64,000 nucleotides of DNA, from sequence record OP870143.1. One strand, 5' to 3'. Below are positions 1-47,149 of the stretch, one piece after another. The notes under the pieces are model-generated. The model searched no databases and had not been told where the DNA came from. It saw nothing but the letters and a program-made list of their open reading frames with translations. Both the position numbers and the translations under genes were made by a program. Every line of letters begins with the position of its first letter. Position 1 is the stretch's first letter. The DNA is from Escherichia phage vB_Eco_F22.

Positions 1-210
1 TTTCTCTGCCATAGTAGATACATATGAGTTAAGCATACCTACTGCTTTAGTAGCAGTACCAAATGTATCTGCAACAGTAGTAGCAGCAGAGTTAACAGTA
101 CCAAGTAAAGTTCCTGCGGTCATACGTACAGTAGCGGTAGTAGTCATGATGATAGCTCCAATAGTTGATGATAGGACGACATGTCCATAGGTTGCGGAGC
201 AACGTGTAAC
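1..210. repeat. Left arm of a perfect 210-bp inverted repeat (reverse complement of 304..513); truncated by the window edge
   Basis: Manual reverse-complement comparison: 1..210 matches 304..513 exactly, symmetry axis near 257; the 93-bp spacer is itself partly palindromic. Confidence 0.85.
191..203 (-). promoter_or_regulatory. Mirror copy of the 311..323 hairpin motif on the minus strand, directing leftward
   Basis: Lies in the left arm of the inverted repeat; a minus-strand ATG at 145..147 opens a reading frame running off the window start. Confidence 0.3.
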
Positions 211-303: not shown

Positions 304-513
304 GTTACACGTTGCTCCGCAACCTATGGACATGTCGTCCTATCATCAACTATTGGAGCTATCATCATGACTACTACCGCTACTGTACGTATGACCGCAG
401 GAACTTTACTTGGTACTGTTAACTCTGCTGCTACTACTGTTGCAGATACATTTGGTACTGCTACTAAAGCAGTAGGTATGCTTAACTCATATGTATCTAC
501 TATGGCAGAGAAA
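304..513. repeat. Right arm of the 210-bp inverted repeat; contains a hairpin motif and the first 49 codons of ORF 367..690
   Basis: Exact reverse complement of 1..210. Confidence 0.85.
311..323 (+). promoter_or_regulatory. Hairpin motif GTTGC-TCC-GCAAC upstream of ORF 367..690; candidate virion-RNAP-type hairpin promoter
   Basis: 5-bp GC-rich stem with 3-nt TCC loop, followed by ctatGGAc; same family as motifs at 929, 1242 and 5106. Confidence 0.4.
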
Positions 514-928: not shown

Positions 929-941
929 GCTGTTCCACAGC
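929..941 (+). promoter_or_regulatory. Hairpin motif GCTGT-TCC-ACAGC upstream of ORF 976..1191
   Basis: 5-bp stem, TCC loop, followed by ttacGGATa; member of the repeated motif family. Confidence 0.4.
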
Positions 942-1241: not shown

Positions 1242-1256
1242 GGCTGCTCCGCAGCC
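1242..1256 (+). promoter_or_regulatory. Hairpin motif GGCTGC-TCC-GCAGCC upstream of ORF 1269..1751
   Basis: 6-bp stem, TCC loop, followed by tttGGATgattt then ATG at 1269. Confidence 0.45.
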
Positions 1257-5105: not shown

Positions 5106-5120
5106 AGCTGCTCCGCAGCT
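5106..5120 (+). promoter_or_regulatory. Hairpin motif AGCTGC-TCC-GCAGCT upstream of ORF 5134..5364
   Basis: 6-bp stem, TCC loop, followed by tgaGGATgtaatc then ATG at 5134; near-identical core to the 1242 motif. Confidence 0.45.
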
Positions 5121-5386: not shown

Positions 5387-6205
5387 ATGTACTCATCAAT
5401 AGAACATCAGAAGCAGCTTGAAGTCCTATTCAATAAAAATCAATTACTGCCTCGCATGAGGAAGGAATTCGAGGACTCCAAAGAAATTGACTTTAAGGCA
5501 TTCGCTGCCTATTTAGAAATTGATTATAAGCTGCTCATTGATGCAATGGTGCAGATTGCCCTACATAAACGTGCTGACATCCAGACTATGATTGGCTCTC
5601 TCATGAGTCACTCAGATGATGCTCAGTACATCGCTGACTGTCTATATAAGATGGCAGAGAATGACTGCTTCAACTATGACCCTACCATCGACAAATTCGG
5701 TGTTATCTATGAGATTAGTGAAGATGTTCAGATGGAACTGGAAGCATTCCAGTATCCATTACCTATCGTAAGTGCTCCTAAGCCTGTTCTGTGTAACCGT
5801 GATACAGGTTACTACGAAAGCAGAGGCAGCATCATCCTCAAGAAGAATCATCATGAAATGGACGTCTGCCTTGACCACATCAACCGTATGAACAATCAAC
5901 GTCTCTGTATTAACTGGGACGTTGCCAACTATGTAAAAGACTCTCGTCCTAACATGGATAAACCCAAAGAGGGGGAAACCCGTCAGGACTATGAGAAACG
6001 TGTTAAAGCCTTTGAGAAGTACAGTCGTACTGCTAAGGAAGTAATGGAGTTAGTAACTCAAGAAGGCAATAACTTCTCACTAGCACATAAGTACGATAAG
6101 AGGGGCAGAACCTATGCCTGTGGATACCATATCAATTTTCAAGGGACTTCATATAACAAGGCAGTGATTGAATTTGCTGATAAGGAGCTGGTAAACGATG
6201 ATTAA
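5387..6205 (+). CDS. Phage RNA polymerase II small subunit (N4 gp15-like)
   Basis: 272 aa, immediately upstream of the catalytic subunit; size and position match the N4 RNAPII heterodimer. Confidence 0.5.
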   Translation: MYSSIEHQKQLEVLFNKNQLLPRMRKEFEDSKEIDFKAFAAYLEIDYKLLIDAMVQIALHKRADIQTMIGSLMSHSDDAQYIADCLYKMAENDCFNYDPTIDKFGVIYEISEDVQMELEAFQYPLPIVSAPKPVLCNRDTGYYESRGSIILKKNHHEMDVCLDHINRMNNQRLCINWDVANYVKDSRPNMDKPKEGETRQDYEKRVKAFEKYSRTAKEVMELVTQEGNNFSLAHKYDKRGRTYACGYHINFQGTSYNKAVIEFADKELVNDD

Positions 6206-6346
6206 TAAACGTGCAGTAGAAGACTTCTATGCTCATAGAGAGTTGGTACTGAAACGCATCAATGAAGCAATGAAACGTGAGGCTGAAGCTAAAGCTAAGC
6301 ATAACCGTAAATAAATCCAAATGCGAGCCAAGAGGACTAATCTCAA

Positions 6347-6589
6347 ATGAGTAAGCTATTAAAACTGTGGTTAATTAGCCAAAGTGAAAACCGTGGGCAT
6401 GACTCCTTTGATTCTGCTGTTGTAGCAGCCTACACAGAGGAAGAAGCTAAACAAATTAATCCAGACGGAGAATGGAAACTATACACCGCCTGGTGTTCTT
6501 CACCAGATAAAGTACATGTTGAGTACCTGGGTATTGCCACCGAAGGCGTGGAACCAGGAATAGTATTGTCATCATTTAATGCTGGTTAA
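6347..6589 (+). CDS. Hypothetical protein (80 aa)
   Basis: ORF between the two RNAP subunit genes. Confidence 0.4.
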   Translation: MSKLLKLWLISQSENRGHDSFDSAVVAAYTEEEAKQINPDGEWKLYTAWCSSPDKVHVEYLGIATEGVEPGIVLSSFNAG

Positions 6590-6643
6590 TCATCCAATAA
6601 GCAGGCTCTCCATAGTGGGGAGCCAAGAAGCGAGGAATATACA

Positions 6644-7861
6644 ATGCAACTGTTAACTGCCCGTGAATACCTGAAAGTAGATGTCGCTAACAACTATGGC
6701 TTAGATAAAAAGACATGGGATGAACGTATTAGCTGGTTCGATGAGAACGAAGCTAATCTGCTCAATCTGGTAGATGAAGCTGAAGAATCTGCACTGTTCT
6801 ATGCTGGTGTAAACGCATGGAAAGATATGAAAGCTGGTAAGCCTATTGGTTATGCCGTAGCTCTGGATGCTACATCATCTGGCTTACAGTTACTGGCTTG
6901 CCTGACTGGTGACCGTTCTGCTGCTGAACTGTGTAACGTAGTTAACTACATGGGCAAGAATGGTAAGCCATTACGTCGTGATGCTTATACAGTTATCTAT
7001 CATAAGATGCTGGACATCCTTGGTGAAGCATCTCGTATTAAACGTAGTGACACCAAGCAGGCAGTTATGACTGCATTCTATGGTTCAGAAGCTAAACCTA
7101 AAGAAGTATTCGGTGAAGGTATCCGTCTCAAGACTTTTGAGAATGTAATGGAAACTGTTGCTAGTGGACCTTGGGCATTGAACAAGTTCTTACTGCAATG
7201 TGGTAACCCAGACGCTAACCGTTATGTATGGGTATTGCCTGACAACTTCCATGCTGTCATTAAAGTTATGGTTCCTGAAGTACAGACTGTTAACTTCTTA
7301 GGTAAGCCATTCGACATCACTCGTATGGTCCAAGGTACTGAAGAGAAGACCCGTATGCTCTCTGCTAACATCACCCACTCTATTGATGGGATGGTAGTAC
7401 GTGAGATGCTGCGTCGTTGTAACTTCAACATGAACCAGGTGAACTATATTAAGTCCCTCTGTGAGGGAACCAGTGAATACATGGTTGGCTCTGATGATAA
7501 CTATGAAATGGTTAACACACTGTGGTCTAACTATGAGAAGTCGGGATTCCTGTCTACCCGTATCTTTGATTATCTGGACTCTGAAACAATTGCATTGGTT
7601 GATACAGATGTAATCATGGCTATGCTCAATACCATGCCTAAGAAACCATTCCCTGTAATGACCGTACACGACTGCTTCCGTTGTCATCCTAACTACGGTA
7701 ATGACCTGCGTCGTCAGTACAATCAGATTCTGTCTGACATTGCTAAGAGTGACCTACTGGGCTTCATCCTGTCTCAGGTACTGGGACAAGAGTTCTCTGC
7801 TGGTAAGCTGGATGACAGCCTTTGGCAGGACATCCTTGAAACAGATTATGCATTAAGTTAA
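6644..7861 (+). CDS. Phage RNA polymerase II catalytic subunit (T7-like single-subunit RNAP palm; N4 gp16-like)
   Basis: ALDATSSGLQ (motif A), RSDTKQAVMTAFYGSEAKPKEVFG (motif B, close to T7 RSVTKRSVMTLAYGSKEFG), TVHDCF (motif C); terminator at 7869. Confidence 0.8.
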   Translation: MQLLTAREYLKVDVANNYGLDKKTWDERISWFDENEANLLNLVDEAEESALFYAGVNAWKDMKAGKPIGYAVALDATSSGLQLLACLTGDRSAAELCNVVNYMGKNGKPLRRDAYTVIYHKMLDILGEASRIKRSDTKQAVMTAFYGSEAKPKEVFGEGIRLKTFENVMETVASGPWALNKFLLQCGNPDANRYVWVLPDNFHAVIKVMVPEVQTVNFLGKPFDITRMVQGTEEKTRMLSANITHSIDGMVVREMLRRCNFNMNQVNYIKSLCEGTSEYMVGSDDNYEMVNTLWSNYEKSGFLSTRIFDYLDSETIALVDTDVIMAMLNTMPKKPFPVMTVHDCFRCHPNYGNDLRRQYNQILSDIAKSDLLGFILSQVLGQEFSAGKLDDSLWQDILETDYALS

Positions 7862-7868
7862 TAAACTG

Positions 7869-7903
7869 GCCTCATACCTTCGGGTATGGGGCTTTTATTT
7901 TTT
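7869..7903 (+). terminator. Intrinsic terminator after the RNAPII catalytic subunit gene
   Basis: Hairpin GCCTCATACC-TTCG-GGTATGGGGC followed by TTTTATTTTTT. Confidence 0.75.
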
Positions 7904-7905
7904 GC

Positions 7906-8103
7906 TTGGAGGTAGTCAACATGCCAGACATCTATGATGTTATTACTAAAACCGTACTGATAGTTTTATCTGCTATTGTGATACTCACTATAGTTAACGC
8001 CCACAAATCCAAGTTTGCTTATTGCTACTATGGAGCATACTCTGCCGGATGTTTTGTATTAGCCGGTTGGATAGCTTACTGGATTTACCACATCAACAAC
8101 TAG
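7906..8103 (+). CDS. Small membrane protein (65 aa, two hydrophobic helices)
   Basis: ORF between two terminators. Confidence 0.4.
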   Translation: MEVVNMPDIYDVITKTVLIVLSAIVILTIVNAHKSKFAYCYYGAYSAGCFVLAGWIAYWIYHINN

Positions 8104-8130
8104 CCACCCTCAAGGGTGGCTTTCTTTTTT
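8103..8130 (+). terminator. Intrinsic terminator
   Basis: Hairpin GCCACCC-TCAA-GGGTGGC followed by TTTCTTTTTT. Confidence 0.7.
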
Positions 8131-8177
8131 ATCAGCCTTCATAATGATTAGGCATATTTACTCAAGAGGATACATAC

Positions 8178-9011
8178 ATGCCAACCCTAAAGATTGCGTT
8201 TAATAAAACTACCAACGTTGCTACCGTGCTTGATTCAGGTGGCAGTGTTCCAGGTGGTTCCGTGGAAGTAGGTACTTTTGAACATCCAGATGCCACTTAC
8301 CCTGATAGCTTAGTTATCTATCACGGTGTTCGTGACCTGTTGTATAAACGTTCTGCTAAAAACCCTGCTGAAGAAGGCTTCTGGCCTGACAACATCGTGG
8401 ATATGCAATCGGTCACTATCGACATGCAAGCTACTCCACGACTGACTGTTGCTACCAAACTGCCTCGTGTAGTCTCTGCCATCGAAGGAGTAGATGTTAA
8501 CTGGCATATTGATGTAGCAGGTGGTAAAGCACCATTTACTTATAAGTGGCAATTCAAAGCTGATACTGCTGGTGCAGTATTCACTGATATTGATTCTGGT
8601 GATAACGCATCTGCTATCACTGCAACATTGACCCTTAGTAACGTAACAGCTGCTTCTGCCGGTACTTATAAAGTGATTGTTACTGATGCTAATGGAACCA
8701 CGGTAGAAGATACCTCGTTGCTGGCTGTAGGTTACTACGAAGCAAGTTCACTGGTAGCTACTCCTACTTCACTGGCTCTGTCTGTTGCTGAAGATCTCGC
8801 CGCTGGCAAGACTGTAACCATTGCTGCTATGCCTGTTGGTTCATCTGCTGGTACTTTGTCTATCAAGACTGCTCCAGATTCTGCCCGTGCTACAGCTACC
8901 ATTGCTGGTAACGTACTGACAGTTAAACCTGTGGCTGCTGGTGATGCTACTTCTGTTGTAGTTACCAACGGTACTGTCGATGTAACCATCGCTGTTACTG
9001 TTGCAGAGTAA
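8178..9011 (+). CDS. Ig-like domain protein, possible capsid decoration protein (N4 gp17-like)
   Basis: TYKWQF...TLTLSNVTAASAGTYKVIVTDANGTT resembles Ig-like/Big domain strands; position after the RNAPII genes matches N4 gp17. Confidence 0.45.
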   Translation: MPTLKIAFNKTTNVATVLDSGGSVPGGSVEVGTFEHPDATYPDSLVIYHGVRDLLYKRSAKNPAEEGFWPDNIVDMQSVTIDMQATPRLTVATKLPRVVSAIEGVDVNWHIDVAGGKAPFTYKWQFKADTAGAVFTDIDSGDNASAITATLTLSNVTAASAGTYKVIVTDANGTTVEDTSLLAVGYYEASSLVATPTSLALSVAEDLAAGKTVTIAAMPVGSSAGTLSIKTAPDSARATATIAGNVLTVKPVAAGDATSVVVTNGTVDVTIAVTVAE

Positions 9012-9063
9012 GGGTATCCCTTATTTGGGGTTATAAACCCCGAAAGGAAACCCTCAAGTTTGG

Positions 9064-9091
9064 CCTCCCTATTGAAGGGAGGTCTTTTTTT
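9064..9091 (+). terminator. Intrinsic terminator after the Ig-like protein gene (third of three consecutive hairpins)
   Basis: Hairpin CCTCCC-TATTGAA-GGGAGG followed by TCTTTTTTT. Confidence 0.7.
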
Positions 9092-9148
9092 GACTATTGT
9101 TTGTCTGTTATATGAATATGTATCAATCTACTAACTAAGAAGGTAACT

Positions 9149-9409
9149 ATGCGTAAAATTGCTATTGGATTCGGTTGTAGTGCTGTTACGGGCCTTATCG
9201 CTTATGCTGCCCACGTAATCTTGGGTATGTCACTGATTGACCTGACACCGGTCATGGTAGCTGCTATCGCAGCCCCACTATTTGGTATCGTAGTCTTTGA
9301 CTTTAAAGCATTCAGCCGTGCTGCTGCTGAAGTAAGCAATCTAATCCTGGGCCGACTTGGACATCGTTCCTTTGGTTCTGGTAGTCTATGCCGACCTCAT
9401 GGTCTGTAA
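9149..9409 (+). CDS. Small membrane protein (86 aa)
   Basis: ORF with predicted hydrophobic helices. Confidence 0.4.
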   Translation: MRKIAIGFGCSAVTGLIAYAAHVILGMSLIDLTPVMVAAIAAPLFGIVVFDFKAFSRAAAEVSNLILGRLGHRSFGSGSLCRPHGL

Positions 9410-9428
9410 AGTATAAACTGATAGATAA

Positions 9429-9453
9429 ACCCCAGCATTGACTGGGGTTTTTT
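9429..9453 (+). terminator. Intrinsic terminator
   Basis: Hairpin AACCCCAG...CTGGGGTT followed by TTTTG. Confidence 0.6.
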
Positions 9454-9659
9454 GCATCTGGAGCCAGGAAATGTATAAAGAGATTGCATTCTTCTCGTTC
9501 TTGTTAGGAGGGTTAATTGGTGCAGGAATTGTAGCTATTTCTAATACCTACTTTGGTTCTACTCCAAACTCTGTAACACAAACCCACAAGCATGAATGTG
9601 AATTGAATATCCCTCGTAATCAAAACTGCGTAATGCAGTTCGTACCGGAGAAGAAATGA
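9438..9659 (+). CDS. Small membrane protein (likely true start at 9471 with GGAG RBS)
   Basis: ORF; the track N-terminus overlaps the terminator hairpin at 9429. Confidence 0.35.
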   Translation: MTGVFCIWSQEMYKEIAFFSFLLGGLIGAGIVAISNTYFGSTPNSVTQTHKHECELNIPRNQNCVMQFVPEKK

Positions 9660-10202: not shown

Positions 10203-11255
10203 ATGGCGAGCATTGACTCCTTGACTGTATGTAATACACGCCAAGCCCGTAACTTTATTATCCGTGCCTTACAAGCAGGTAACGTACCGTTCCTGACTTC
10301 ATCGCCGGGCATGGGTAAATCTGCAATTATCCGTTCTGTTGCAGAAGAATTTGGCATGAAGCTGATTGACCATCGTCTATCTACTTCTGCCCCGGAAGAC
10401 TTATCTGGTCTACCATTCCGTAATGGTGACCGTGCAGAGTTTATCCCTTTCGCTGACTTATTCCCTATTGAGGGTGACGAAGTACCGGAAGGTTATAATG
10501 GCTGGCTCCTGTTCCTTGATGAGTTCAACTCAGCTAAGAAAGAAGTAGTAGCTGCTGCATATAAACTGATTCTAGACCGTATGACTGGACAGAAAAAACT
10601 TCACCCCAACGTGATGATTATCTGTGCCGGTAATAAAGCTACTGACCGTGCTATCGTTAACCCTCTAGGTACTGCAATGCAGTCCCGTGTTGTCCACTTC
10701 GAAATGGAACTTAACTTCGACATCTTTGTTGAAGACGTAATGATTCCACAAGAATGGGATGAGCGTCTGGTTGCATTTTTACATGCTAACCCAGGTTATC
10801 TGCACGACTTCGACCCTGCCCATAAGAACAAAACATTCTGTTGCCCTCGTACCTGGGACTTTGTTAATAAAGACCTCAAGAACCGACCAGAAGGTGCTTT
10901 GCCTGATGAAGATTCTATCTACTATGCAGGTCACGTTACTGCTGGTAAAGCTACAGAATTTGTTCAGTTCACCCAGGTATACAATCGTATGATTACGATT
11001 GAGAAGGTAGTCAAAGACCCATTGGGCTGTGCACTACCGGAGGATAATAACCTGTGTTGGGCTACCGTTAACCACCTGGCTAACAAGACTACTGAAGATA
11101 ACTTCGCTGATGTACTTAAGTACATTGAACGCTTTAAAACGTTCACCCATAAGATTCTGTACTTCCGTACAGTAGGCAAAGCATTACCAGAAATTCAGGC
11201 TACCCCTGAATGGCGTAAGGCTGCTGCTAATATCTCTCGTTACATTCACGGATAA
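10203..11255 (+). CDS. AAA+ ATPase, MoxR-like
   Basis: Walker A SSPGMGKSAI, Walker B LLFLDEFN; 350 aa. Confidence 0.7.
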   Translation: MASIDSLTVCNTRQARNFIIRALQAGNVPFLTSSPGMGKSAIIRSVAEEFGMKLIDHRLSTSAPEDLSGLPFRNGDRAEFIPFADLFPIEGDEVPEGYNGWLLFLDEFNSAKKEVVAAAYKLILDRMTGQKKLHPNVMIICAGNKATDRAIVNPLGTAMQSRVVHFEMELNFDIFVEDVMIPQEWDERLVAFLHANPGYLHDFDPAHKNKTFCCPRTWDFVNKDLKNRPEGALPDEDSIYYAGHVTAGKATEFVQFTQVYNRMITIEKVVKDPLGCALPEDNNLCWATVNHLANKTTEDNFADVLKYIERFKTFTHKILYFRTVGKALPEIQATPEWRKAAANISRYIHG

Positions 11256-36301: not shown

Positions 36302-39300
36302 TTAGTTTACCAGGTTCATCCAAGGGTTCAGGTTGTGAGCACGTAGACCTTGCCCAAAGCCCCATGAGTAATCCAGCCCACCCTTAGCAGCAATGCTAAA
36401 GATGTTGTCCTGAATAGGCAGACCAACATTACCAAACATGGTAGGAGTTGGAGCCAGCATTGCCATTGCTGCATGCACCGGGTTATTACGAATCATGGAC
36501 ACTGCAACCTTAGCTGAACGAATCTTAAAGTTGTAGAACCACATCAAACCAACACTTTCCATATACCCACGGAAGCGACCTGGTAAACGGTCATAGTTAA
36601 CAAACTCTTCAGTTACACGTCCCAGTGCTTCTTCACGAGTCTTACCTTTACGCTGAGTCAATTCATCATAGATGATTGCTTTAGCGATAAAGTCAGAGTA
36701 CTCAACTGTCTTTTGGATACCCTGGAACAGAGCAGTATCCTTGGTGATAAGTGCATAACGTCCAGCAGTACGTACAGACTTAGGTAACTTATCTGCCAGC
36801 TTTTCCATATATTCGTGAAGTTTGCCTTCAGTAATCAGAATGTCATCACGACCGATACCAGCATCTGCAATTGAAGAGAACTCACCAGCTTCCAACAGAG
36901 GCCAGATGCTCATACGCTTATGGCTATCAGTAATGGACTGAATCTCAGCCTTAAGTTTACGAATCTGGTTCGGGTTAGTAGCTGCACGTAATTCTGCTTC
37001 TGCATCTACCTGACGCAGACGAGATTTCAGGTACTGGTTAATCTCAGCAGTTTTCTGTGGAATGCTTTTAGCAATGTTCTTAACCGGTACACCACGGGCA
37101 ACCATCTGGTAAAGGTTAGCCAAGAAGTTAACAGCAGGTACGACTACTGACTTAACTACAATCAGAGTCTTGGCTTCTTTAACTAAGTTTTGAACCAGGT
37201 TCTCACCACCCATTGTGTACTTATAAGCACGGTTGCCAAATACACCCAGCATAGCTTTCTTGAAGGTATCCAATGTTTCCGGGGACCAACGAGAATTACC
37301 AGACCAGGCATCACCTACAGAAGCTGCACGATAACCAAGTGCATCATTCAGCATGTCACGACGCACCCACAGTTCACCCTCACCAAACAGACTTTCTGCT
37401 TTCTGACGTGTTTCACTGTTCATTAGCTTAAGAGCATCAGCAGTTACTGGGTCCAGTTTAGAACCAAGAAGGTTAACGTACTGGGATTTATTAGAGGCAG
37501 ACATCTTAATGTCGTTCTCATACATGCTATGCAGGTTCTCAATCAACATATTGTTGAAACGCTGAGCCTTAGCTTCTTCCACCTGACGACCACGCCATAC
37601 ACCAATTGCACGGGCAAGGTGATTCTCGCCTTCAATGTGCTTCAGCATGTTAGGGTCAATGGATTGCTCATAGGCAACCACATTACCTTTGTCATCATAT
37701 ACAGGCAGAAGTGGTTCATTACCACGTTCACCACGAGCCAGTGCTTTAGTGATACGGTCTACGGAAGGCTTGTCAGTAATACGACCAGCTACCATCGAAC
37801 CCATCGTAAAGCCCGTACCGATGTCTACACCACCAGCAGTATTACGAACGTTTTGTAGGATACCCTGTGAGAAAGGAGCCTGTGCCTGTACCGGTGCGAA
37901 GTAGTAGCTGCGTGCTGGACCACGGTTAGCAGAGCTACCTTGATAAGTACCCAGACGTACATAAGATTTCTCAATCAAATCTCCAAACTGGCTATCTTCA
38001 GCAACAATCAGATTAACACCCTGTTTAGTCTCACTAGGGATATGCCCTTTGTACTGGTTCAAGGTTGCACGCATATCAGACTTGGCTTTAGCCATTTCAT
38101 CTTTACGCTGACCAACCAGGTAAGAAGTAGCAAAGTCCATTCCATCAACTTCTGTCTGAGCCAGAGAAGATAACATCTCACGGTCGGACTTGTTCATTGC
38201 TTCCAGTGCATACAGGGTAATCAGTTTATCCAGTTGAGCTACATCTACAGTAGAACGAGCAGCCTGACGTTCACCAAGCATACGAGAGATTGCAGTAGCA
38301 TTACGCAGCAGGTTATTACCGACTGTACCGTTAATCATGAACTGAGCCAGTTGCTTAGATTTACGACTAATAAGAGGCCAGTTACGACCAGCTTGTTTCT
38401 GCAAATCTGCTTCCAGCTTATTCACTTCACGGTCAACAATCTTCTGGTCAGATAGTAGGTCACGGATTTCAGCCAGAGACATAGTGTCACGCAGAACAGC
38501 TAAGTCAGTTTTACCCATGCCAGTGTGCATTGCTTTCCACTCATCGTTAGTCAGCTTACGGCTGAACTTAGATGCGATAGTGGTAGGCAGGTGTTCACGG
38601 AATTGCTGACGGTCTGCTTGTACCTGTGCACGAACTGCTTTAATCAAATCGTATACAGAAGCATTACTCTTAGTACGACCAGTTAAGTCATTAACCAGGT
38701 CATGGAAGGGTTGCCATACCTTACCCTGGTTCATTGCAGCCATAACACCTTCAGCTACAATTGCACCATTCTTCTCAGTAGCAATAGCAGCCACCAATTG
38801 TGCAGCATGGGCAGCACCTTTAACCAATGGATTCTTAGTATTAGCTGCAACTTCGCGAGCACTTTCTAAAGCACGAGTAGACAGTGCATCAATAGAATCC
38901 ACCAGATACTGGTTAGCACGATCAATAGCATTACCACTAGGAGTAGCAACGGAATCATAGAATGACTGTGCATTGAGGCTAGTCTGCATGATTGTCTGAG
39001 CCAGTGCATCCATACCTTCCTGTACGTTGGTAGCTTTAGTGTCACCTGCTACACGGGCATTCAAGCTAGACATTGCAGCAGTACCAATGTTAGTCAGCAT
39101 TGCATCAATGGTATTACCGGATTTCTTATCTGCTTTCATAACAGGAATGTTAGCCAGTACGTTACGTACCTCTTCACTTACCATTGCCAGACCAACAAAG
39201 GTAGGCAGTAAGGAAGAACGACCCTGTGCATCAAACTCGATATTGTTAGCACCCATGATGGTATCGAACTTCTGCTGTGCATAGTAACGGTCAGCAGGGT

Positions 39301-42300
39301 TGGTACTATCCGGGTCAGCCATGAATGCTTCAACGGTCAGATTCTTAGTAACGTGTGCATAGTATTCCTGTGCACGAGATAGAGCAGCCGGACTAATAGC
39401 AGCCTCAGTAGCCAAAGCAGCAACGATATTAGTGAACAGGCGTTGTTCCTGCATATTCATAGTGAAACCATGAGCCTGAACATCACGGGTTACTTTAGTA
39501 GCATTCACTACTGCATCAGAGAACTTACCTTTACGAATTACTTGTTGCACTGGTTCTGAACCAATGTAGTTAGTAATCAGCTTATCAAAGGTCTGCCCCA
39601 ATTCTTCCAGACGGGTATTGTCGCCATACGCCTTGTTATGGAACAAGGTAGTGTCCTTGGATACAGCAGCCGTAGGAGCCTGCCCACGCATAACTACGGA
39701 AGAGTTAAACAGTAAGCCAGAGAACATATCATCTGCATTAGCAGGAGCTTTCTTACGACCGAATACCAGACGCTTGATTGCTTCATACACAGACTGAACC
39801 ATAGTCTTCAGTGCAGTAGTCTTCTTCTGCTTACTAATTAGTTCACGGTTGGTTAAGCCCCAAGCCATGTATTCGTTCAGTGCAGCAGCTTTAGCCATTG
39901 CCGGTTCAATGAAGCCATTAGACAAGTGACCGTTAATGGTATTGAGTGCATCAGCATATGCTTCACGTACTGCCGGGGTTTCATCCTTAACATCCAGAGT
40001 ACGGAACTGGTTCATCAGGTCTTCAATATTCTGAACTGCTTCATTAGGAGTACCCTCATAATGAGCCAGTACAGATTCAAAAGTAGAAGCATGTACCAAT
40101 TCATGAACCAGAGTCTCTAAGGAAGGGGTAACTAAGTAGATGGTCTTATCATCAAAGTTAGTCCAGCCATATGCATTACCAGCTTCGGCAGCTTCAATAT
40201 CTTCCGGTGCTGGGCGAGTAATGTTCTTCTCAATAGCATAAGCATCCAGCTGAGCAGGAGTACCGTAAACAACCTTGTAGTCTTTAGCAGCAAGGGATTT
40301 CTGTACTTCTTTCAATACCGCTTGCTGTTCAGGAGACATCTCTTTAGCCAGCTTAGTGATAGCAGTATTAGACAGCAGACGTACACCAGACTTCAGTACA
40401 CGACCAACCTGTTCCATTGCTGGTACTTCTTTAACAGGTGTTTCTTCAGCAGGTACTTCTTTCACTGGTTCTGCTTTAGCAGCACGTACTGCATCACGGC
40501 GCTTATTTAATTCGGCATCAAACAGTTCGTTTAGCTTAGCTACTTGCTGGTCTACAGTCAGACCTTCCAGAGAGATTTTACCGTTGTTCACATAAGGAGC
40601 ACCTACAGCAGCCATCTGGTCAACAGTGGTCTGTACCTGGTTCATTACTTTGTGGCGAATATCTACACCTAAAGCAATGTTACGCAGATTACGTTCAATG
40701 AGGTTAACACCGGATTTCTCAATCATATCAATCTTATACTGCCTGTCTCCCTCAACACGACTGATATGGGAAAGCTGTTCAAAATCTAAAGCGGAACGAG
40801 CAATGTCATCAATTGTCTTATCTGACAACTTATTAAAGTCTACGTTCTTCATGAACTTAGAGAAGGAGTCATACACGTTCTTAATAGGATTGCCCTGCCA
40901 AGAAGTATAAACAGCCTCATTAGCTTTACGACTTGCATCAGTGATGTCATTGATACCAATGTTCATACCATCAAAGATTTTCAGGGTATTCTTCGGAGCA
41001 CCTTTCATAGTAGAAAGGGTCTGCATCATCATGCCATCACCAGTACCAATGGTCATAAATGGAATACCTGCAACACCTGCTTGTGAAGGAGCATAGATGC
41101 TCATTGGCACACGCATACGGTCGTCTAAGTTGGTAGCCAGTACTTGGTTAGCAACATCAGTATTCTCACTGCCAGCAATGTAAAAAGTCTGTGAACCAGT
41201 CTCAATCATTGGAGCCAGTGGAGACAGGGATTTCTGAATTTCATTCAGCTCTTCCTGTGTTAAGAAATCGCCCTTCTTCCAGGTTGGGTCTTTTTCTTTT
41301 TCTGCCAGTTTAGCCTGTACTGCTTGTTGGAACATATCCTGCAATACTAAAGACTGAATTTGAGTAGCCTTCTGCAAGTTCTCAGTGGAGTGCATCAGAC
41401 CTTCACCAACGGTGAACCGGATACTTTGTCTCATTGGTTCAACGAAGAAGTGCAACATGTTCTCTTGTAGGTTCTTAAGAGCATCACCAGATACAGTAAA
41501 CTCCTGGGGATCTAACTCACCAGTCAGAGCACCATCTACTTCCTTAATAAATAACTTACCTTTACGCTTAGCTGGAATCTTACCAGTCAGTGCTTCCATA
41601 GAAGTAAGGAAGGTATCCAGCATAGCCTGAGCATCTGCCTCAGACGCAGCCTCCTTACCAAACAATGCCATAGCTGGGGAAATGCTAGGGTCAGTAGCAC
41701 GTGCTTGTAGAACGTCACTGAGGCGTTCGTAGATGGCGTCAGTAATTGCACTAACCATCTTGCCAGCAATACCACGAGCACCAGAACCATAGATGGTAAT
41801 GGTCAGGGGGTTTTTAGCGATGCCACGTTTCAGGTCCAGAGTACCGTCTTCATTCAGGTTAAAGTCTTTAATGAACAGGTCCATTAGCTTCTGGAGATGA
41901 TCCATCTGGCTCATAACAGGAACGTTGTTACGGTAAGCACTACGTAATTCATTTAGATAGAATTGCAAACTATTGGTAGATGCTTCATACAGGTCAACAT
42001 TATCGTCGATAGAGCAATGTTCGTTCATCGTTTTACCAGCACGACCAAAGAACAAACCACCCTTGGCAGTATTCTTAATCCAATTTGGAGTGAACTTACC
42101 TCCAGTCATTAATACCATTGCGTTGATTGGGCCGTTGGTTACACCATCGGCTTCAACGTACAGAGGAGTATTAAAATTAGCACGGTTATCACTGTTCAGG
42201 TAACGGGCATATTCCATCAGAGCCATGAGAGCCACGAAGGATTTGTTATCACCCAAAGAGGTCTTCAGGATATCTACTGCATCTGTCGGTAAGTGCCCAG

Positions 42301-45300
42301 ACTTATCAAACTCAACCATCATATCAACAGCAGGTTTCAATTTGCCTTCCAGAGCTTTAGTCAACTCTTCAGACATAGCTTCACGGGACATTTTATGTAC
42401 CTTGATGCCTAATGCCTGAGCCAGTCCTAACTGGAAGTCAGAGAACGCTTGGCTATTTTCATTACTCAGGTCAATAGTAGAGAAGGTTGGCAGAATTGCT
42501 TCACGAACCAGCTTACTGGATTGTGGGTTGTTCTTACCAAGCATCTGCATACGACCTACTCGGGTCATGTTATAGCCATAGTGAATGGGGGTATCCAAAC
42601 CATTCTCTTGTTCTTTTAGATGATTAATTAAACCGAACAGAGAATCATATGCCATAGATACTGATAAGTTCTTACCTTCCAGTGATTTAGCATTATTTTT
42701 ATTCAGCAAATCAGGATTAAGAGTACCAGCACCCATTAGTTCCAGAATGCTGTCTCGACCCAATGCTTCATAGAAGTTAACCATCGGCATGTGTACACGG
42801 AACTCAGTAGCCTGTTCAGCTTTCAGTGCAGCTTTCTGTTCGGGGGTATTCTTAACAGCAGGATTACGTAACTGAGTTTGGGCCACGGAAGGAATGTCGT
42901 CACCAAAGTACATTTTCTCTTCCGGATTTACCAACACAGCTTCTTCAATTGCTGTAGGGAAATTATTAATAGGGTCTTTATCAGCCAACTTATTAATAGT
43001 GTACAGACCAATAGTCTTATTAGAGTCCGGGTCAATCTCAGACACATCCAGCATAGTCTCTGTAACTGCACCCATCTCAATGAGGGAAGACAGAATCTCT
43101 GTAGCCATTGCCACTGGAATGCCTTTTGTATAACCCAGTGGTGCATTAGGGTTACGATTCAAACCCCAATAAGATTCAATCTTCTGAGCCAGTGAGCTAG
43201 TAGCTTCGACCAGGGTCTGGGCATTCTCAAATTCAGCCAGAATACTTTCTGGTAACAAGGATGCTTCTACTCCAGTAATGGCAGCTACGTCTTTTATGTC
43301 TTTAATGGCAGCATTCTGTGCAGCAGTCAGTCGCCATTGCAGACCAGCAAGCACGGCAGTCTCTAACAACTGGTCATTGAACTTAAAGGTATCACCATCT
43401 TTTTCAACGATATTCAGCAGTTTGCCACCTACCCAACGGTTAGCTTCAGTACCTTCTGCAAAACGTTTACCAACGTTCTTATTAGCAAGGAACTTAGCCA
43501 GTCGTTCAGACAGAGTAGTCTTCAGTGTTTCCCCAAAGTCCATCAAATCTTGGTAACGTTCTAACACATCACCCGTGAGAGCGTTATTTTCTTTTTGAGT
43601 GAATGCTTCAAAGCGAGCAGCAGAAGACAGTGCTTGCTTAATATCAGCTAAAGGAGATTCAGAACCAATGGTACGGGACTTGGGTTCTTCTGGCAGGGTA
43701 AATGCTTTCAGGAACTGGTTCGGTGTCTTTTCATTGTTATAGACAGGGAACACTGTTTCCATCTCAGAAAGAGGTTTGCCACCTACTGTATAATCTGCTT
43801 TTAGCTGAGCCAGCGATACTTCATCTTTCTCCACGTTGTTAGTGTTACGGCCAGAGGTATCTACACCAACCAGAATCTGTGCATTATTGGCTTCAACGAA
43901 AGATTGAACAGTATTGAATTGTTCAGCGGTCAGCTTTTGATTATCAAACAGTTGTAGGGACACAAACGGTTGTTCACTGCCTTTATAGAAAGTAGAGCGA
44001 ATAGAACCAGTATCCAAAGACATATCACGATAGCCATCATGCCCAAATACGTCAGACAGGCTGATATGGTCGCCATTAGAACCAACCACAGTACCATCAG
44101 CAAACAACCACGGACTCTCTCTACGGTCACCACTCTTATTAAGAGTTTCCTGTGAAATGGTATTTTCTTTCACATAAGCATCTCTTTCAGATTCAGTAGG
44201 TTGCTCAATGGTATCCTCATTAGTGAGGGTAGCATCTACTGTTTCAGGCTTAGTAGTAGAAACTTCTTCTGTTTTTGGGCTAGTCTCCTTAGTAGGAGCA
44301 GTCTTATTTTCTACCACTGGTTTAGCTTTAGGCTGTACAGTAGTAGTGTCCTCTTGCACTGGTGCAGGAGTTTCATCAACCTGATTCACTGGTTCATTAG
44401 TCTGTTGAGACTGAGTGGCATCAAGACCACCTTGACGGAACTCTTTAACTACCTGGGCAGCAGGCTTGTTCAGACGTGAATCCAACGAGGTAACTTTCAC
44501 ATGAGAAACATTAAGCTCCGGGTAAGCCGTAGCAAGTGCATTAGCAATATCAGCTACGGTTTTGGCCTCCAGTCCTACTTGCTGTGCAAACTTAACAGAC
44601 TTGGTATCGTAAGGATTAACACCGAGGCCAGTACGACTACGTACCCATTCACGGGAAGGCGAGAGAGCCTGATAATGAACAGACTTATTCTTATCCGCAT
44701 TCCCCGAAATCAGATGCTCATTCAACGCTCCGACCTTATTCTGCATGTGCTGGGCGAACTTCATAAAGTCGCTCAGATAAGCGGAGGCCAAATCGAAGTT
44801 ACCAGAGTTATACGCAGAACGAATGCGTTTCGCATGTTGCAACGCAGAGTACTGTCCTTCATTAGAACGAGACTCGTCGGTTTTAATCTGTTTACTAACA
44901 ATGTCTTGAGGACGTAAGCCTAGTTCTTCTGCTTTAGCGTCGAACTCTCGTGCACCCTGTAACAAGGCAGCAGCAGATTGCAGGGCAGCACGTTGACGAT
45001 TCCCCAGTGTAATCTTACCTTCGCTTGCGTGCTTCAGAACCATGTTCACTGAATCTGCATCCAGTACTTCTGGAGATACATCAGCAGCCATAGCAATGTT
45101 GTTTGCTTGGGCTTGATTAGCTTCTTCAGTAGCTTTCAGCTTACCTGCTTCAGCCTGTTCCTGAATCATAGAATGGATGGCACGGAATGCACGAAGTACT
45201 TTAGGGGTATTCTGTACGTTAGCCATCAGACCAGAGAACTGGTCTACGATTGCAGCAGCAGGGGAACCCTGTTCCAGATTAGCCAGAGCACCCGGGTCAC

Positions 45301-47149
45301 GGTTAATGAAGCTATCCATGGACATGATGTTGTCATACATCTGGATTGCAGCTTCCATTTGAACGTTAGGGTCTTCGGCAGTATTAACCAGGTCAGCCAT
45401 CTTCTGAATAGCTTCTACACGGTTAGTGGAACCAGAAACAGCTTCACGGATTACTGGGTTAGCTTGTTCCAACTCTACCGGGTCGAACTTCATTGCCTGA
45501 GTTAAGTCAGCAGCATACTGGGTAGCAGCAGCTTTCTCTTCCGGAGAAATATCCATTGCATCTACTGCTTCCTGTACAGTTGCTTGTGCTTGTTCTGCCT
45601 GAGCAGCAGCTTCCTGTGCAGCAGCATTAACCGTAGCATCAGCTACAGGGGATGCTTGTTCATTACGCTTGGCAACTTCTTCACCACGTTGAACCAGAAT
45701 GTTAGTAAGAGGAGATGCAGCTTTTGCTAGTGTTTTACCAACCAGAGAAGCACCAGCCAGGGTAGTACGAAGAGTAGGGCCAGCAGCAGCACCGGCAGCT
45801 TTAACAGTTGCACCAGGGACTTGAGCAACTCCAGCACTACCGAAGCCATAAAGTGCACCAAGACCTGCTTGCTCACCAACCCCTTTGAGGGTGTCACGGG
45901 ATGCATCAACGTTTTCTTTGATTGCAGTATTCTGTGCGAACTGACCAAAGCCGGATTGAATACCTTCCTCTACAGTTTCACGCAGCATATTAGAACCAGC
46001 ACCTGCCAGTGAACCTACCTTAAGTGGGTTAAGTTCAAAGCGAGATACCAGTGGGCCGGTAGCAGCAGCAACTGGAGCAGTTAAGCCAGCAGCAATGATA
46101 CCTGTTTCAGATGCAGTCTGACGACGTGCTTCATCAGGAGATAAACCATCAGCAATATGCTGTTGGTAAACAGGAGACTTACTTGCCAGTTCTTGGTGGG
46201 ACATCTTCATGATTTCAGAAGCAGTCTGTTGGTATGCACCACCAGCTTCCATACCACCGATTGCAATAGCAGGTGCAGCAACACGACCAGCAGACAGTGC
46301 AACCTGTGCAGGACGTGAACCTAACCCAGCAGCTAAGGTAATACCCTTAACAGCTTTATCACCACCTACCATTACTTTACCGAGTGCAGATACACCACGA
46401 ATAAGTGGACCACCGGTAAAGAGGGAACCAACACCTTCACTCAGTCCGTCAGAGGCAGCCATACCATTATCAAGTGTATTAGCAACAGAATCGAAAGCAT
46501 CACGACCAATACGAGACAAGGAGGCAACCAAATCGTTCTCCCCATTTTTGATGTCTTGTTCATAAAGTTTCTGATTCTTTTGAGCAGAAATCTGGTTCTG
46601 ATTCTGAACAACCTTACGGGTAGCATTCAGTGCATCAGACTGTAGATTGTGTACGCCTTCATTCAACCAATCCATCCCGGAAGCAATGGTTGCCCCGGCA
46701 TTATCATTGACCAAACCTGTGCCAAGAGCAGCAATGCCCCCAAGGGTATTAGCAACACCAAGACCAACACCAGAAAGAGTATCGCCAAATGCTTCTGCGT
46801 TAGTACGTTGTTTAGATAAGTCCTGACGTACAACATCCGCAGCATTAGCTCGGCTATTAAGAATTTGTAGACCTTGCTCATTACCGTATTTATTAATGAT
46901 TTCTAATGGGGAGGCTTGAGTGAAATCTGCCTGAAGTGAACCTGGTTCGAATGCACCGATTCCAAGATTACCTACACGTCCGGTCTGGAGATTGTAAGCA
47001 TTCTCTGGGGTTAATTGGAAAGGGATTTGCCCTTGTGCAGCTTGCTTCTGAGAGGTTGCAGTAGAGACATCGACTCGCTTAGCATTAGTGATGCTGTCTG
47101 CGAAACCTGCCAGACGGTCAAATGTTGACATAGCATGTTTCCTGTTCAA
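36302..47149 (-). CDS. Giant virion RNA polymerase (N4 gp50-like vRNAP), 3615 aa
   Basis: Single uninterrupted 10.8-kb ORF; central T7-like palm motifs LYVEADGVTNGPINAM (A), KNPLTITIYGSGARG (B), KIFDGMNIG (C); first gene of the leftward block. Confidence 0.8.
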   Translation of the reverse strand: MNRKHAMSTFDRLAGFADSITNAKRVDVSTATSQKQAAQGQIPFQLTPENAYNLQTGRVGNLGIGAFEPGSLQADFTQASPLEIINKYGNEQGLQILNSRANAADVVRQDLSKQRTNAEAFGDTLSGVGLGVANTLGGIAALGTGLVNDNAGATIASGMDWLNEGVHNLQSDALNATRKVVQNQNQISAQKNQKLYEQDIKNGENDLVASLSRIGRDAFDSVANTLDNGMAASDGLSEGVGSLFTGGPLIRGVSALGKVMVGGDKAVKGITLAAGLGSRPAQVALSAGRVAAPAIAIGGMEAGGAYQQTASEIMKMSHQELASKSPVYQQHIADGLSPDEARRQTASETGIIAAGLTAPVAAATGPLVSRFELNPLKVGSLAGAGSNMLRETVEEGIQSGFGQFAQNTAIKENVDASRDTLKGVGEQAGLGALYGFGSAGVAQVPGATVKAAGAAAGPTLRTTLAGASLVGKTLAKAASPLTNILVQRGEEVAKRNEQASPVADATVNAAAQEAAAQAEQAQATVQEAVDAMDISPEEKAAATQYAADLTQAMKFDPVELEQANPVIREAVSGSTNRVEAIQKMADLVNTAEDPNVQMEAAIQMYDNIMSMDSFINRDPGALANLEQGSPAAAIVDQFSGLMANVQNTPKVLRAFRAIHSMIQEQAEAGKLKATEEANQAQANNIAMAADVSPEVLDADSVNMVLKHASEGKITLGNRQRAALQSAAALLQGAREFDAKAEELGLRPQDIVSKQIKTDESRSNEGQYSALQHAKRIRSAYNSGNFDLASAYLSDFMKFAQHMQNKVGALNEHLISGNADKNKSVHYQALSPSREWVRSRTGLGVNPYDTKSVKFAQQVGLEAKTVADIANALATAYPELNVSHVKVTSLDSRLNKPAAQVVKEFRQGGLDATQSQQTNEPVNQVDETPAPVQEDTTTVQPKAKPVVENKTAPTKETSPKTEEVSTTKPETVDATLTNEDTIEQPTESERDAYVKENTISQETLNKSGDRRESPWLFADGTVVGSNGDHISLSDVFGHDGYRDMSLDTGSIRSTFYKGSEQPFVSLQLFDNQKLTAEQFNTVQSFVEANNAQILVGVDTSGRNTNNVEKDEVSLAQLKADYTVGGKPLSEMETVFPVYNNEKTPNQFLKAFTLPEEPKSRTIGSESPLADIKQALSSAARFEAFTQKENNALTGDVLERYQDLMDFGETLKTTLSERLAKFLANKNVGKRFAEGTEANRWVGGKLLNIVEKDGDTFKFNDQLLETAVLAGLQWRLTAAQNAAIKDIKDVAAITGVEASLLPESILAEFENAQTLVEATSSLAQKIESYWGLNRNPNAPLGYTKGIPVAMATEILSSLIEMGAVTETMLDVSEIDPDSNKTIGLYTINKLADKDPINNFPTAIEEAVLVNPEEKMYFGDDIPSVAQTQLRNPAVKNTPEQKAALKAEQATEFRVHMPMVNFYEALGRDSILELMGAGTLNPDLLNKNNAKSLEGKNLSVSMAYDSLFGLINHLKEQENGLDTPIHYGYNMTRVGRMQMLGKNNPQSSKLVREAILPTFSTIDLSNENSQAFSDFQLGLAQALGIKVHKMSREAMSEELTKALEGKLKPAVDMMVEFDKSGHLPTDAVDILKTSLGDNKSFVALMALMEYARYLNSDNRANFNTPLYVEADGVTNGPINAMVLMTGGKFTPNWIKNTAKGGLFFGRAGKTMNEHCSIDDNVDLYEASTNSLQFYLNELRSAYRNNVPVMSQMDHLQKLMDLFIKDFNLNEDGTLDLKRGIAKNPLTITIYGSGARGIAGKMVSAITDAIYERLSDVLQARATDPSISPAMALFGKEAASEADAQAMLDTFLTSMEALTGKIPAKRKGKLFIKEVDGALTGELDPQEFTVSGDALKNLQENMLHFFVEPMRQSIRFTVGEGLMHSTENLQKATQIQSLVLQDMFQQAVQAKLAEKEKDPTWKKGDFLTQEELNEIQKSLSPLAPMIETGSQTFYIAGSENTDVANQVLATNLDDRMRVPMSIYAPSQAGVAGIPFMTIGTGDGMMMQTLSTMKGAPKNTLKIFDGMNIGINDITDASRKANEAVYTSWQGNPIKNVYDSFSKFMKNVDFNKLSDKTIDDIARSALDFEQLSHISRVEGDRQYKIDMIEKSGVNLIERNLRNIALGVDIRHKVMNQVQTTVDQMAAVGAPYVNNGKISLEGLTVDQQVAKLNELFDAELNKRRDAVRAAKAEPVKEVPAEETPVKEVPAMEQVGRVLKSGVRLLSNTAITKLAKEMSPEQQAVLKEVQKSLAAKDYKVVYGTPAQLDAYAIEKNITRPAPEDIEAAEAGNAYGWTNFDDKTIYLVTPSLETLVHELVHASTFESVLAHYEGTPNEAVQNIEDLMNQFRTLDVKDETPAVREAYADALNTINGHLSNGFIEPAMAKAAALNEYMAWGLTNRELISKQKKTTALKTMVQSVYEAIKRLVFGRKKAPANADDMFSGLLFNSSVVMRGQAPTAAVSKDTTLFHNKAYGDNTRLEELGQTFDKLITNYIGSEPVQQVIRKGKFSDAVVNATKVTRDVQAHGFTMNMQEQRLFTNIVAALATEAAISPAALSRAQEYYAHVTKNLTVEAFMADPDSTNPADRYYAQQKFDTIMGANNIEFDAQGRSSLLPTFVGLAMVSEEVRNVLANIPVMKADKKSGNTIDAMLTNIGTAAMSSLNARVAGDTKATNVQEGMDALAQTIMQTSLNAQSFYDSVATPSGNAIDRANQYLVDSIDALSTRALESAREVAANTKNPLVKGAAHAAQLVAAIATEKNGAIVAEGVMAAMNQGKVWQPFHDLVNDLTGRTKSNASVYDLIKAVRAQVQADRQQFREHLPTTIASKFSRKLTNDEWKAMHTGMGKTDLAVLRDTMSLAEIRDLLSDQKIVDREVNKLEADLQKQAGRNWPLISRKSKQLAQFMINGTVGNNLLRNATAISRMLGERQAARSTVDVAQLDKLITLYALEAMNKSDREMLSSLAQTEVDGMDFATSYLVGQRKDEMAKAKSDMRATLNQYKGHIPSETKQGVNLIVAEDSQFGDLIEKSYVRLGTYQGSSANRGPARSYYFAPVQAQAPFSQGILQNVRNTAGGVDIGTGFTMGSMVAGRITDKPSVDRITKALARGERGNEPLLPVYDDKGNVVAYEQSIDPNMLKHIEGENHLARAIGVWRGRQVEEAKAQRFNNMLIENLHSMYENDIKMSASNKSQYVNLLGSKLDPVTADALKLMNSETRQKAESLFGEGELWVRRDMLNDALGYRAASVGDAWSGNSRWSPETLDTFKKAMLGVFGNRAYKYTMGGENLVQNLVKEAKTLIVVKSVVVPAVNFLANLYQMVARGVPVKNIAKSIPQKTAEINQYLKSRLRQVDAEAELRAATNPNQIRKLKAEIQSITDSHKRMSIWPLLEAGEFSSIADAGIGRDDILITEGKLHEYMEKLADKLPKSVRTAGRYALITKDTALFQGIQKTVEYSDFIAKAIIYDELTQRKGKTREEALGRVTEEFVNYDRLPGRFRGYMESVGLMWFYNFKIRSAKVAVSMIRNNPVHAAMAMLAPTPTMFGNVGLPIQDNIFSIAAKGGLDYSWGFGQGLRAHNLNPWMNLVN

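Follow-up and report, generated by a model that had tools for sequence, protein, structure and literature searches.

The window analyzed here, a stretch of 64,000 nucleotides from Escherichia phage vB_Eco_F22 (OP870143.1), carries a gene on its + strand that in all probability represents, together with its setting, the Gamaleyavirus form of the N4 gp17-type decoration gene, bracketed by terminators and with one true terminator among the three hairpins at its 3′ end. From 7800 to 9500 the sequence matches Escherichia phage E20 (OP745616.1; Schitoviridae, Enquatrovirinae, Gamaleyavirus) at 100% identity and shares 84-96% identity with other G7C-like coliphages. The open reading frame corresponds to E20_23, which is annotated as 'structural protein' in OP745616.1, and can be named with confidence as 'capsid decoration protein (N4 gp17-like)'.

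8178..9011, + strand: capsid decoration protein gene (N4 gp17 ortholog, 277 aa), ATG at 8178, TAA at 9009-9011

PHROG 2973 ('Hoc-like head decoration') matches residues 1-277 of the encoded protein with an E value of 3.5e-99. Full-length matches in the PDB were obtained with the structures of the N4 32 kDa protein (9e99, 9lbz and 9ld7; E 4e-115 for 9e99_J) and with 9d7z_J, an 'Ig-like domain-containing protein' of 273 aa (E 7e-96). The 9d7z chain is taken to be Moo19 gp28, with which its length and the printed alignment agree. Pairwise comparison revealed 68% identity to N4 gp17 (277/279 aa, E 8e-137) and 64% identity to Moo19 gp28. Because the solved orthologs are 64-68% identical, we infer an Ig fold for the protein; a three-domain Ig-like architecture and a role on the capsid would likewise follow from these orthologs, an extrapolation that should be safe at such identity. 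The approximate domains span residues 1-90 (DI), 93-180 (DII, Ig I-set-like) and 192-277 (DIII). The initial annotation had proposed an Ig-like capsid decoration protein, and this proposal is borne out as far as orthology to N4 gp17 and Moo19 gp28, both with structures solved in the virion, can be read from the sequence.

In the N4 capsid, resolved by cryo-electron microscopy (cryo-EM) at 2.45 Å, gp17 comprises three Ig-like domains lying across interfaces of the major capsid protein. Three copies are present per asymmetric unit of the T=9 capsid, arranged flat around the quasi-2-fold axes, with DI occupying each quasi-3-fold axis, DII sitting on the P-domain of a capsid subunit and DIII being flexible (PMC11768535). 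The N4 head carries approximately 175 gp17 copies (PMC3715699). Moo19 gp28 was detected by mass spectrometry in purified virions and modelled in the capsid map (PMC11654681). The product of 8178..9011 would be the Gamaleyavirus version of N4 gp17, a 'cement' protein built from three β-sandwich Ig-like domains. By the N4 model, approximately 180 copies would cover each T=9 head with DIII exposed to the solvent. Identity, Ig-like fold and capsid location of this decoration protein are already known, having been described for N4 since 2008 with high-resolution structures in 2024, and the significance of the present assignment is small beyond correct annotation.

The coding sequence ends in, and is followed by, a series of three hairpins:

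9009..9023, + strand: hairpin 1, UAAGGG-UAU-CCCUUA, 6 bp, loop UAU, contains the stop codon; weak
9024..9044, + strand: hairpin 2, UUUGGGGUU-AUA-AACCCCGAA, 9 bp (U-G and U-A at the ends), loop AUA
9062..9084, followed by T7 at 9085..9091, + strand: hairpin 3, intrinsic terminator, GGCCUCCCU-AUUGA-AGGGAGGUC

These positions (9009..9023, 9024..9044 and 9062..9091) lie within a few bases of those at which the hairpins had been predicted initially (9011..9023, 9030..9045 and 9064..9091), and the designation of the last one as a strong terminator was confirmed. Hairpin 3 was found by the terminator scan as a stem-loop followed by a U-run (T7). It consists of 9 pairs (6 G-C) and a 5-nt loop, and folds at −16.5 kcal/mol (z −3.6, 1/200 shuffles as good). 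Hairpin 2 harbors a perfect core, GGGGTT/AACCCC, in the palindrome GGGGTTATAAACCCC at 9027..9041 and folds at −10.3 kcal/mol (z −2.9, 1/200 shuffles as good); as DNA, each of its strands folds as well (−5.2 to −5.6 kcal/mol). The energy of hairpin 1 is not beyond chance (−5.6 kcal/mol, z −1.4, 12/200 shuffles as good). The whole segment from 9000 to 9100 folds at −40 kcal/mol (z −3.95) and is more structured than its shuffles.

Hairpins 1 and 2 are followed by UUUGGGG and AGGAAACCC, respectively, instead of a U-run, and the terminator scan called neither of them. Having no U-tract, they cannot terminate transcription alone. A search of 7800..9500 against Rfam returned no family at E ≤ 1. Elsewhere in the window there is no other copy of hairpin 2, and hairpin 1 has one weak match with 3 mismatches at 48358. 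Altogether, the window contains 123 perfect hairpins (stem ≥6 bp, loop 3-5 nt) as against 55 ± 8 when a first-order Markov model was simulated. Among its GC-rich hairpins, many are terminators at gene ends on both strands. The trio downstream of the decoration gene is one ordinary, annotated terminator, one conserved hairpin with a probably minor role and one weak hairpin. Most likely, hairpins 1 and 2 form part of a structured mRNA 3′ end, in which they would aid stability or pausing before the terminator.

The conservation of these elements was examined in 14 Gamaleyavirus sequences, in which the 87-base segment spanning stop codon to T-run displays a mean column identity of 94%. The terminator formed by hairpin 3 is conserved in 14/14 relatives and has been annotated independently: the PhAPEC7 and SP5M records list it as an ARNold terminator, that of G7C as a stem_loop. 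Its T-run comprises 7 T in E20, approximately 14 T in SP5M (locus L013, 1713..1826) and approximately 28 T in nithesis (locus L011, 1710..1868), and the expanded run in the latter two could reflect either a homopolymer prone to slippage or an artefact of the assembly. When the sequences were fitted to a model of three local hairpins, 97.6% of the pair cells were standard pairs. Five of the 12 positions of hairpin 1 vary, with 82/84 cells paired; most changes turn G-C into G-U or U-A into U-G, and there is one double change from G-C to A-U. Hairpin 2 has 99.2% of its cells paired and no double changes. For both hairpins, most substitutions are more readily reconciled with pairing in the + sense RNA than in DNA; half of all transitions, however, would keep pairing regardless. 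In a composite model derived from the minimum-free-energy fold, an outer stem (9011-9019/9046-9054) encloses hairpin 2, and 85.7% of the outer-stem cells are paired.

A different arrangement is present in IME11, St11Ph5, N4 and Moo19. Here, gp17 is directly followed by a different terminator (GCCCTCC-loop-GAGGGC) and then by a gp18-like superinfection-exclusion (sie) gene. Hairpin 2 occurs only after the sie gene, with the terminator approximately 20 nt further downstream, and hairpin 1 is absent or degenerate. The forms of hairpin 2 found in relatives are GGGGTT-ATA-AACCC, GGGTT-AAT-GACCC in N4 and GGGTT-GAGCA-AACCC in Moo19. Gamaleyavirus, N4 and Moo19 all keep the stem and its position; the loop varies (ATA, GTA, AAT, GAGCA), and between genera the spacer is unalignable. 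Hairpin 2 thus has the appearance of an element being maintained where the gp17(-sie) unit ends, and hairpin 1 is genus-specific.

The GCCCTCC terminator and the gp18-like sie gene form a cassette with a presence/absence polymorphism between the gp17 stop codon and the module of hairpin 2 plus terminator. It is found in IME11 (L014, 1653..2112), St11Ph5 (L008, 2334..2796), the N4-like phage OLB145 (L004, 3340..3790) and Moo19 (L005, 3322..3782), and E20 is without it (window 9009..9095). The cassette junction lies inside the loop of hairpin 2 (...GGTTATA|), and in IME11 the cassette is flanked by a direct repeat of approximately 20 nt (TTTCTTnGKGGTTATA).

Two further terminators, at 7868..7893 and 8102..8121, precede the decoration gene and had been missed in the initial annotation. 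The elements upstream of the start codon are the following:

7868..7903 (hairpin 7868..7893), + strand: intrinsic terminator after gp16; 11 pairs plus T-run in the scan
8102..8130 (hairpin 8102..8121), + strand: intrinsic terminator after gp16.1, AGCCACCC-UCAA-GGGUGGCU plus U-rich tail
8140..8145, + strand: −10-like hexamer CATAAT, candidate promoter element only, 33 nt upstream of ATG, no convincing −35
8164..8170, + strand: Shine-Dalgarno sequence AAGAGGA, 7 nt before ATG, read from the sequence

The gp16 terminator folds at −18.7 kcal/mol (z −4.9) and is annotated in PhAPEC7 and SP5M. The gp16.1 terminator was found by the terminator scan (−15.1 kcal/mol, z −4.65) and is annotated as terminator in PhAPEC7 and SP5M and as stem_loop in G7C. 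Across subgroups its stem shows true compensatory variation (GCCACCC/GGGTGGC, ACCCTC/GAGGGT and ACCCACC/GGTGGGT). The GAGGA of the Shine-Dalgarno sequence is conserved in 13/13 aligned relatives.

Bracketed by two upstream and one downstream intrinsic terminators, the decoration gene would be expressed from a short, mainly monocistronic mRNA. A mostly monocistronic mRNA is suggested because conserved and independently annotated terminators are present on both sides, and we infer such a transcript for the decoration gene. Combined with a structured 3′ end, it would suit a protein needed at approximately 180 copies per particle. Independent transcriptional control of the gene is plausible. The initial annotation had deduced tight or independent control from the three hairpins, and this deduction holds in part: the terminators on both sides suggest a separate unit, but only the third hairpin is a terminator, and read-through is known from the related Pseudomonas phage LUZ7.

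Several observations weigh against the reading of 8178..9011 as a terminator-bracketed, gp17-type decoration gene with a structured 3′ end. The Pfam family Ig_3 matches residues 96-169 with only 25.5 bits, which is under its gathering cut-off of 30, and no Pfam family was detected for the isolated DI (1-91) or DIII (192-277). A single-sequence AlphaFold2 model of the protein was unusable (pLDDT 37.6, pTM 0.25). Among the 14 Gamaleyavirus sequences no significant covariation was found for the three-hairpin model (284/500 shuffles), and covariation in the composite model was not above shuffles either (223/500). The local-hairpin model fits slightly better than the composite one, and the sequences are too similar for covariation to decide the structure. 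Given the absence of significant covariation, any function of hairpins 1 and 2 is putative. A general 'independent promoter' is disfavored by Moo19 and Ea9-2, where the upstream terminator lies right against the ribosome-binding site and no space is left for a separate promoter, and by LUZ7, in which terminator read-through is extensive and time-dependent (PMC9163698). Read-through of this kind can occur in N4-like phages, and therefore the transcript may not be strictly monocistronic.

Different explanations for hairpins 1 and 2 were considered. It is possible, if on balance unlikely, that both are functionless, being neutral sequence or a recombination scar at a site where the sie (gp18-like) cassette comes and goes. 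The position of the cassette junction in the hairpin 2 loop and the repeat of approximately 20 nt flanking the cassette in IME11 are consistent with such a scar, as are the energy of hairpin 1, which is no better than shuffled, and the lack of significant covariation. However, the stem of hairpin 2 is retained in N4 and Moo19 although the adjoining spacer has diverged beyond recognition, and 99% of its cells are paired across 14 genomes. Furthermore, the window holds approximately twice as many perfect hairpins as Markov simulations, so this genome tends to retain such structures.

Improbable in our view is a composite termination region in which different hairpins stop or pause the virion RNA polymerase (vRNAP), the T7-like RNAPII and the host RNA polymerase (RNAP). 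N4-type genomes are indeed transcribed by three polymerases (PMC4496689), the decoration gene lies where early genes give way to middle genes, with a vRNAP-type promoter upstream at 5107, and the place of hairpin 2 before the terminator is fixed in three genera despite divergence of the spacer. However, hairpins 1 and 2 are devoid of a U-tract and showed none of the signals known for T7-like enzymes. Covariation is missing and hairpin 1 is not conserved outside the genus, which likewise speaks against multiple polymerase-specific stops.

A much less probable explanation is that one or both hairpins act as DNA hairpin promoters, of the N4 vRNAP early or the LUZ7 RNAPII middle type, for the downstream genes. 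With loops of 3 nt and stems of 6-9 bp, hairpins 1 and 2 resemble the LUZ7 middle promoters, which are hairpins with stems of ≥6 bp and loops of 3-4 nt located approximately 15 bp upstream of the start site (PMC9163698), and the folding of hairpin 2 as DNA on either strand was also counted in favor of a promoter. In contrast, the hairpins of the vRNAP type in this phage have the form GYTGY-TCC-RCARC with the loop TCC, GGA on the template strand, whereas hairpins 1 and 2 have the loops TAT and ATA and unrelated stems. N4 vRNAP promoters require the template-strand loop GGA, and the features of N4 virion-RNAP hairpin promoters were absent from hairpins 1 and 2; N4 middle promoters are AT-rich linear sequences and not hairpins (PMC4496689). 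Hairpin 2 is unique in the window, and no other family of GC-rich hairpins with 3-nt loops precedes + strand genes. Transcription starting approximately 15 nt downstream would begin immediately before the strong terminator. Finally, the G-U-preserving changes seen among the Gamaleyavirus sequences in hairpins 1 and 2 would mean A-C mismatches in the other DNA strand.

Hairpins of the vRNAP type are present elsewhere in the window. GYTGY-TCC-RCARC occurs at 311..323, 929..941, 1243..1255 and 5107..5119 on the + strand and as an inverted copy at 191..203 on the − strand; including a weaker one at 18111, six matches were found versus 0.68 expected. GCTGC-TCC-GCAGC at 1243 and 5107 and the variants at 311 and 929 match the architecture of N4 early promoters. 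The hairpin at 5107 lies approximately 270 nt upstream of the RNAPII subunit gene gp15.

That the decoration protein is instead a neck whisker, fibritin or tail fibre is hardly conceivable: GenBank labels such as 'fibritin (wac) protein' or 'neck whiskers protein' in VTCCBPA_322, UE-S5b and IME11 and weak local matches of the Ig-like middle domain (36-41% over approximately 90-120 residues) to tail-fibre and whisker proteins of large myoviruses would point this way, but the matches are confined to the shared Ig-like domain (residues ~89-212) and the full-length orthologs of N4 and Moo19 were located on the capsid surface by cryo-EM. The records PP989839.1, PP301341.1, JX880034.1 and PQ741797.1 name orthologs 'fibritin (wac)', 'fibrin (wac)' or 'neck whiskers' protein. 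Such labels are probably misannotations, likely arising from the shared Ig-like middle domain.

Returning to the gp17-type decoration gene and its own transcription, the hexamer at 8140..8145 could be a promoter for the host RNAP and is regarded as a candidate. E20-type phages and N4 have CATAAT at this position, Uz-1/IME11-type phages TATACT, and the segment containing the hexamer is missing entirely from Moo19 and Ea9-2. The hexamer was not called by a consensus promoter scan. A conserved (C)ATATTTACT box adjoins the hexamer (window 8122..8177). No motif common to the gp17 upstream region and other intergenic regions, the late − strand ones included, was detected, and the 22-mer CATAATGATTAGGCATATTTAC is unique. 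Gaps in the late region suggest −10 elements like TAGACT or TAGAGT, which are unlike the sequence upstream of gp17.

In N4, virion structural proteins are not made under rifampicin, and late transcripts map to the genome's right half with leftward polarity (PMC4496689). If the rifampicin statement covers the 32 kDa protein, gp17 would depend on host RNAP. A transcript map covering gp17 of N4 or G7C-like phages was not found in the literature. We tentatively propose, as a scenario that is rather doubtful in its entirety, a late gp17 unit transcribed from a host σ70-type, N4SSB-dependent promoter (candidate 8140-8145), insulated by terminators and ending in hairpin 2 as a functional 3′ element. 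If true, a late gp17 gene dependent on host RNAP would be an exception to, or a modest refinement of, the N4 transcription map, and hairpin 2 would serve stability, pausing or polymerase-specific termination in a manner common to three genera.

The genome surrounding the decoration gene has the standard N4-type layout, with + strand genes spanning approximately 1 to 36,000. Landmarks are:

5387..6205 and 6644..7861, + strand: RNAPII subunit genes gp15 and gp16
10203..11255: gp24-like ATPase gene
36302..47149, − strand: giant virion RNA polymerase gene
53917..55116, − strand: major head protein gene
56734..59001, − strand: portal gene

Window coordinates equal OP745616.1 coordinates + 292. The window begins 291 bases left of the start of the E20 record, and therefore a different start point or representation of the terminal repeat was used. 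As described initially, the decoration gene is located on the + strand among early/middle genes and far from the late structural block: it lies on the side of the RNAPII genes (5387..7861), with the head (53917..55116) and portal (56734..59001) genes on the − strand. RNAPII gp15 and gp16 are followed by the small gp16.1 and then by the decoration gene, which is separated from the major capsid gene by approximately 45 kb and faces rightward, as it does in N4, Moo19, G7C and Ea9-2.

This order, gp15, gp16, (gp16.1) and gp17, was found in the Gamaleyavirus members E20, KKP 3715, Uz-1, nithesis and CU10EC as well as IME11, St11Ph5, PhAPEC7, SP5M and G7C. RNAPII genes also precede gp17 in N4 and OLB145 (Enquatrovirus) and in Moo19 (Moovirus), and Erwinia phage Ea9-2 (Erskinevirinae) has kept the order with few small genes in between. 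A scan of IMG/VR contributed only 9 loci, mostly copies of known phages. The gp17-type decoration gene is absent from Pseudomonas and Vibrio N4-like phages. The decoration gene of the window would occupy its ancestral position, directly downstream of RNAPII gp15/gp16 in rightward orientation. That gp17 lies apart from the structural block is a long-standing, conserved feature of the N4 group that has been described before, and it is not specific to this genome.

Downstream of the gp17 terminator, E20_24 (9149..9409), coding for a hydrophobic protein of 86 aa (PHROG 26763 of unknown function), is inserted before gp17.1 within window 9092..9453. It has its own terminator (stem 9427..9450, −15.7 kcal/mol). 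E20_24 is present in E20, KKP 3715, Uz-1, nithesis, CU10EC and IME11, probably also in K57alpha1.2 (100% DNA coverage of the region), and absent from G7C, PhAPEC5, PhAPEC7 and SP5M. Together with its terminator, it looks like a moron-type cassette.

Comparison with known systems places the terminator next to those annotated in PhAPEC7, SP5M and G7C, which are found at the same place and consist of a GACCTCCCT...AGGGAGGTC stem and a T-run. In E20 the second stem position is G in place of A, so that G-U replaces A-U. The two small hairpins before the terminator are unannotated in the PhAPEC7, SP5M and G7C records. N4 gp17 (PDB 9e99, 9lbz, 9ld7; Choi et al. 2008; PMC11768535) and the window protein are alike in their nearly equal size (279 versus 277 aa), the presumed three-domain layout, the position of the gene after gp15/gp16 and a terminator at the 3′ end. 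In contrast to the window, N4 gp17 is followed by the GCCCTCC... terminator and the gp18 superinfection-exclusion gene, and the module of hairpin 2 plus terminator appears only after gp18. E20-type phages, unlike N4, possess an additional small gene, gp16.1, which is placed between gp16 and gp17 and carries a terminator of its own. Moo19 gp28 (PDB 9d7z; PMC11654681) is Ig-like, was modelled on a T=9 capsid and is encoded in the same synteny; it differs in that a −10-like spacer is missing, the gp27 terminator abuts the ribosome-binding site and a sie gene is located downstream.

With T4 Hoc and T5 pb10 the window protein would share an Ig-like β-sandwich (I-set/Ig_3 type) displayed on the capsid. 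Weak matches were obtained with the decoration proteins 8zvi and 5lxk (E ~1e-3) and with Hoc 3shs (E 0.9). Hoc has no full-length homology to the window protein and is a dispensable, outward-projecting fibre, whereas N4 gp17 lies flat across the interfaces of the capsid subunits and is thought to reinforce the shell (PMC11768535).

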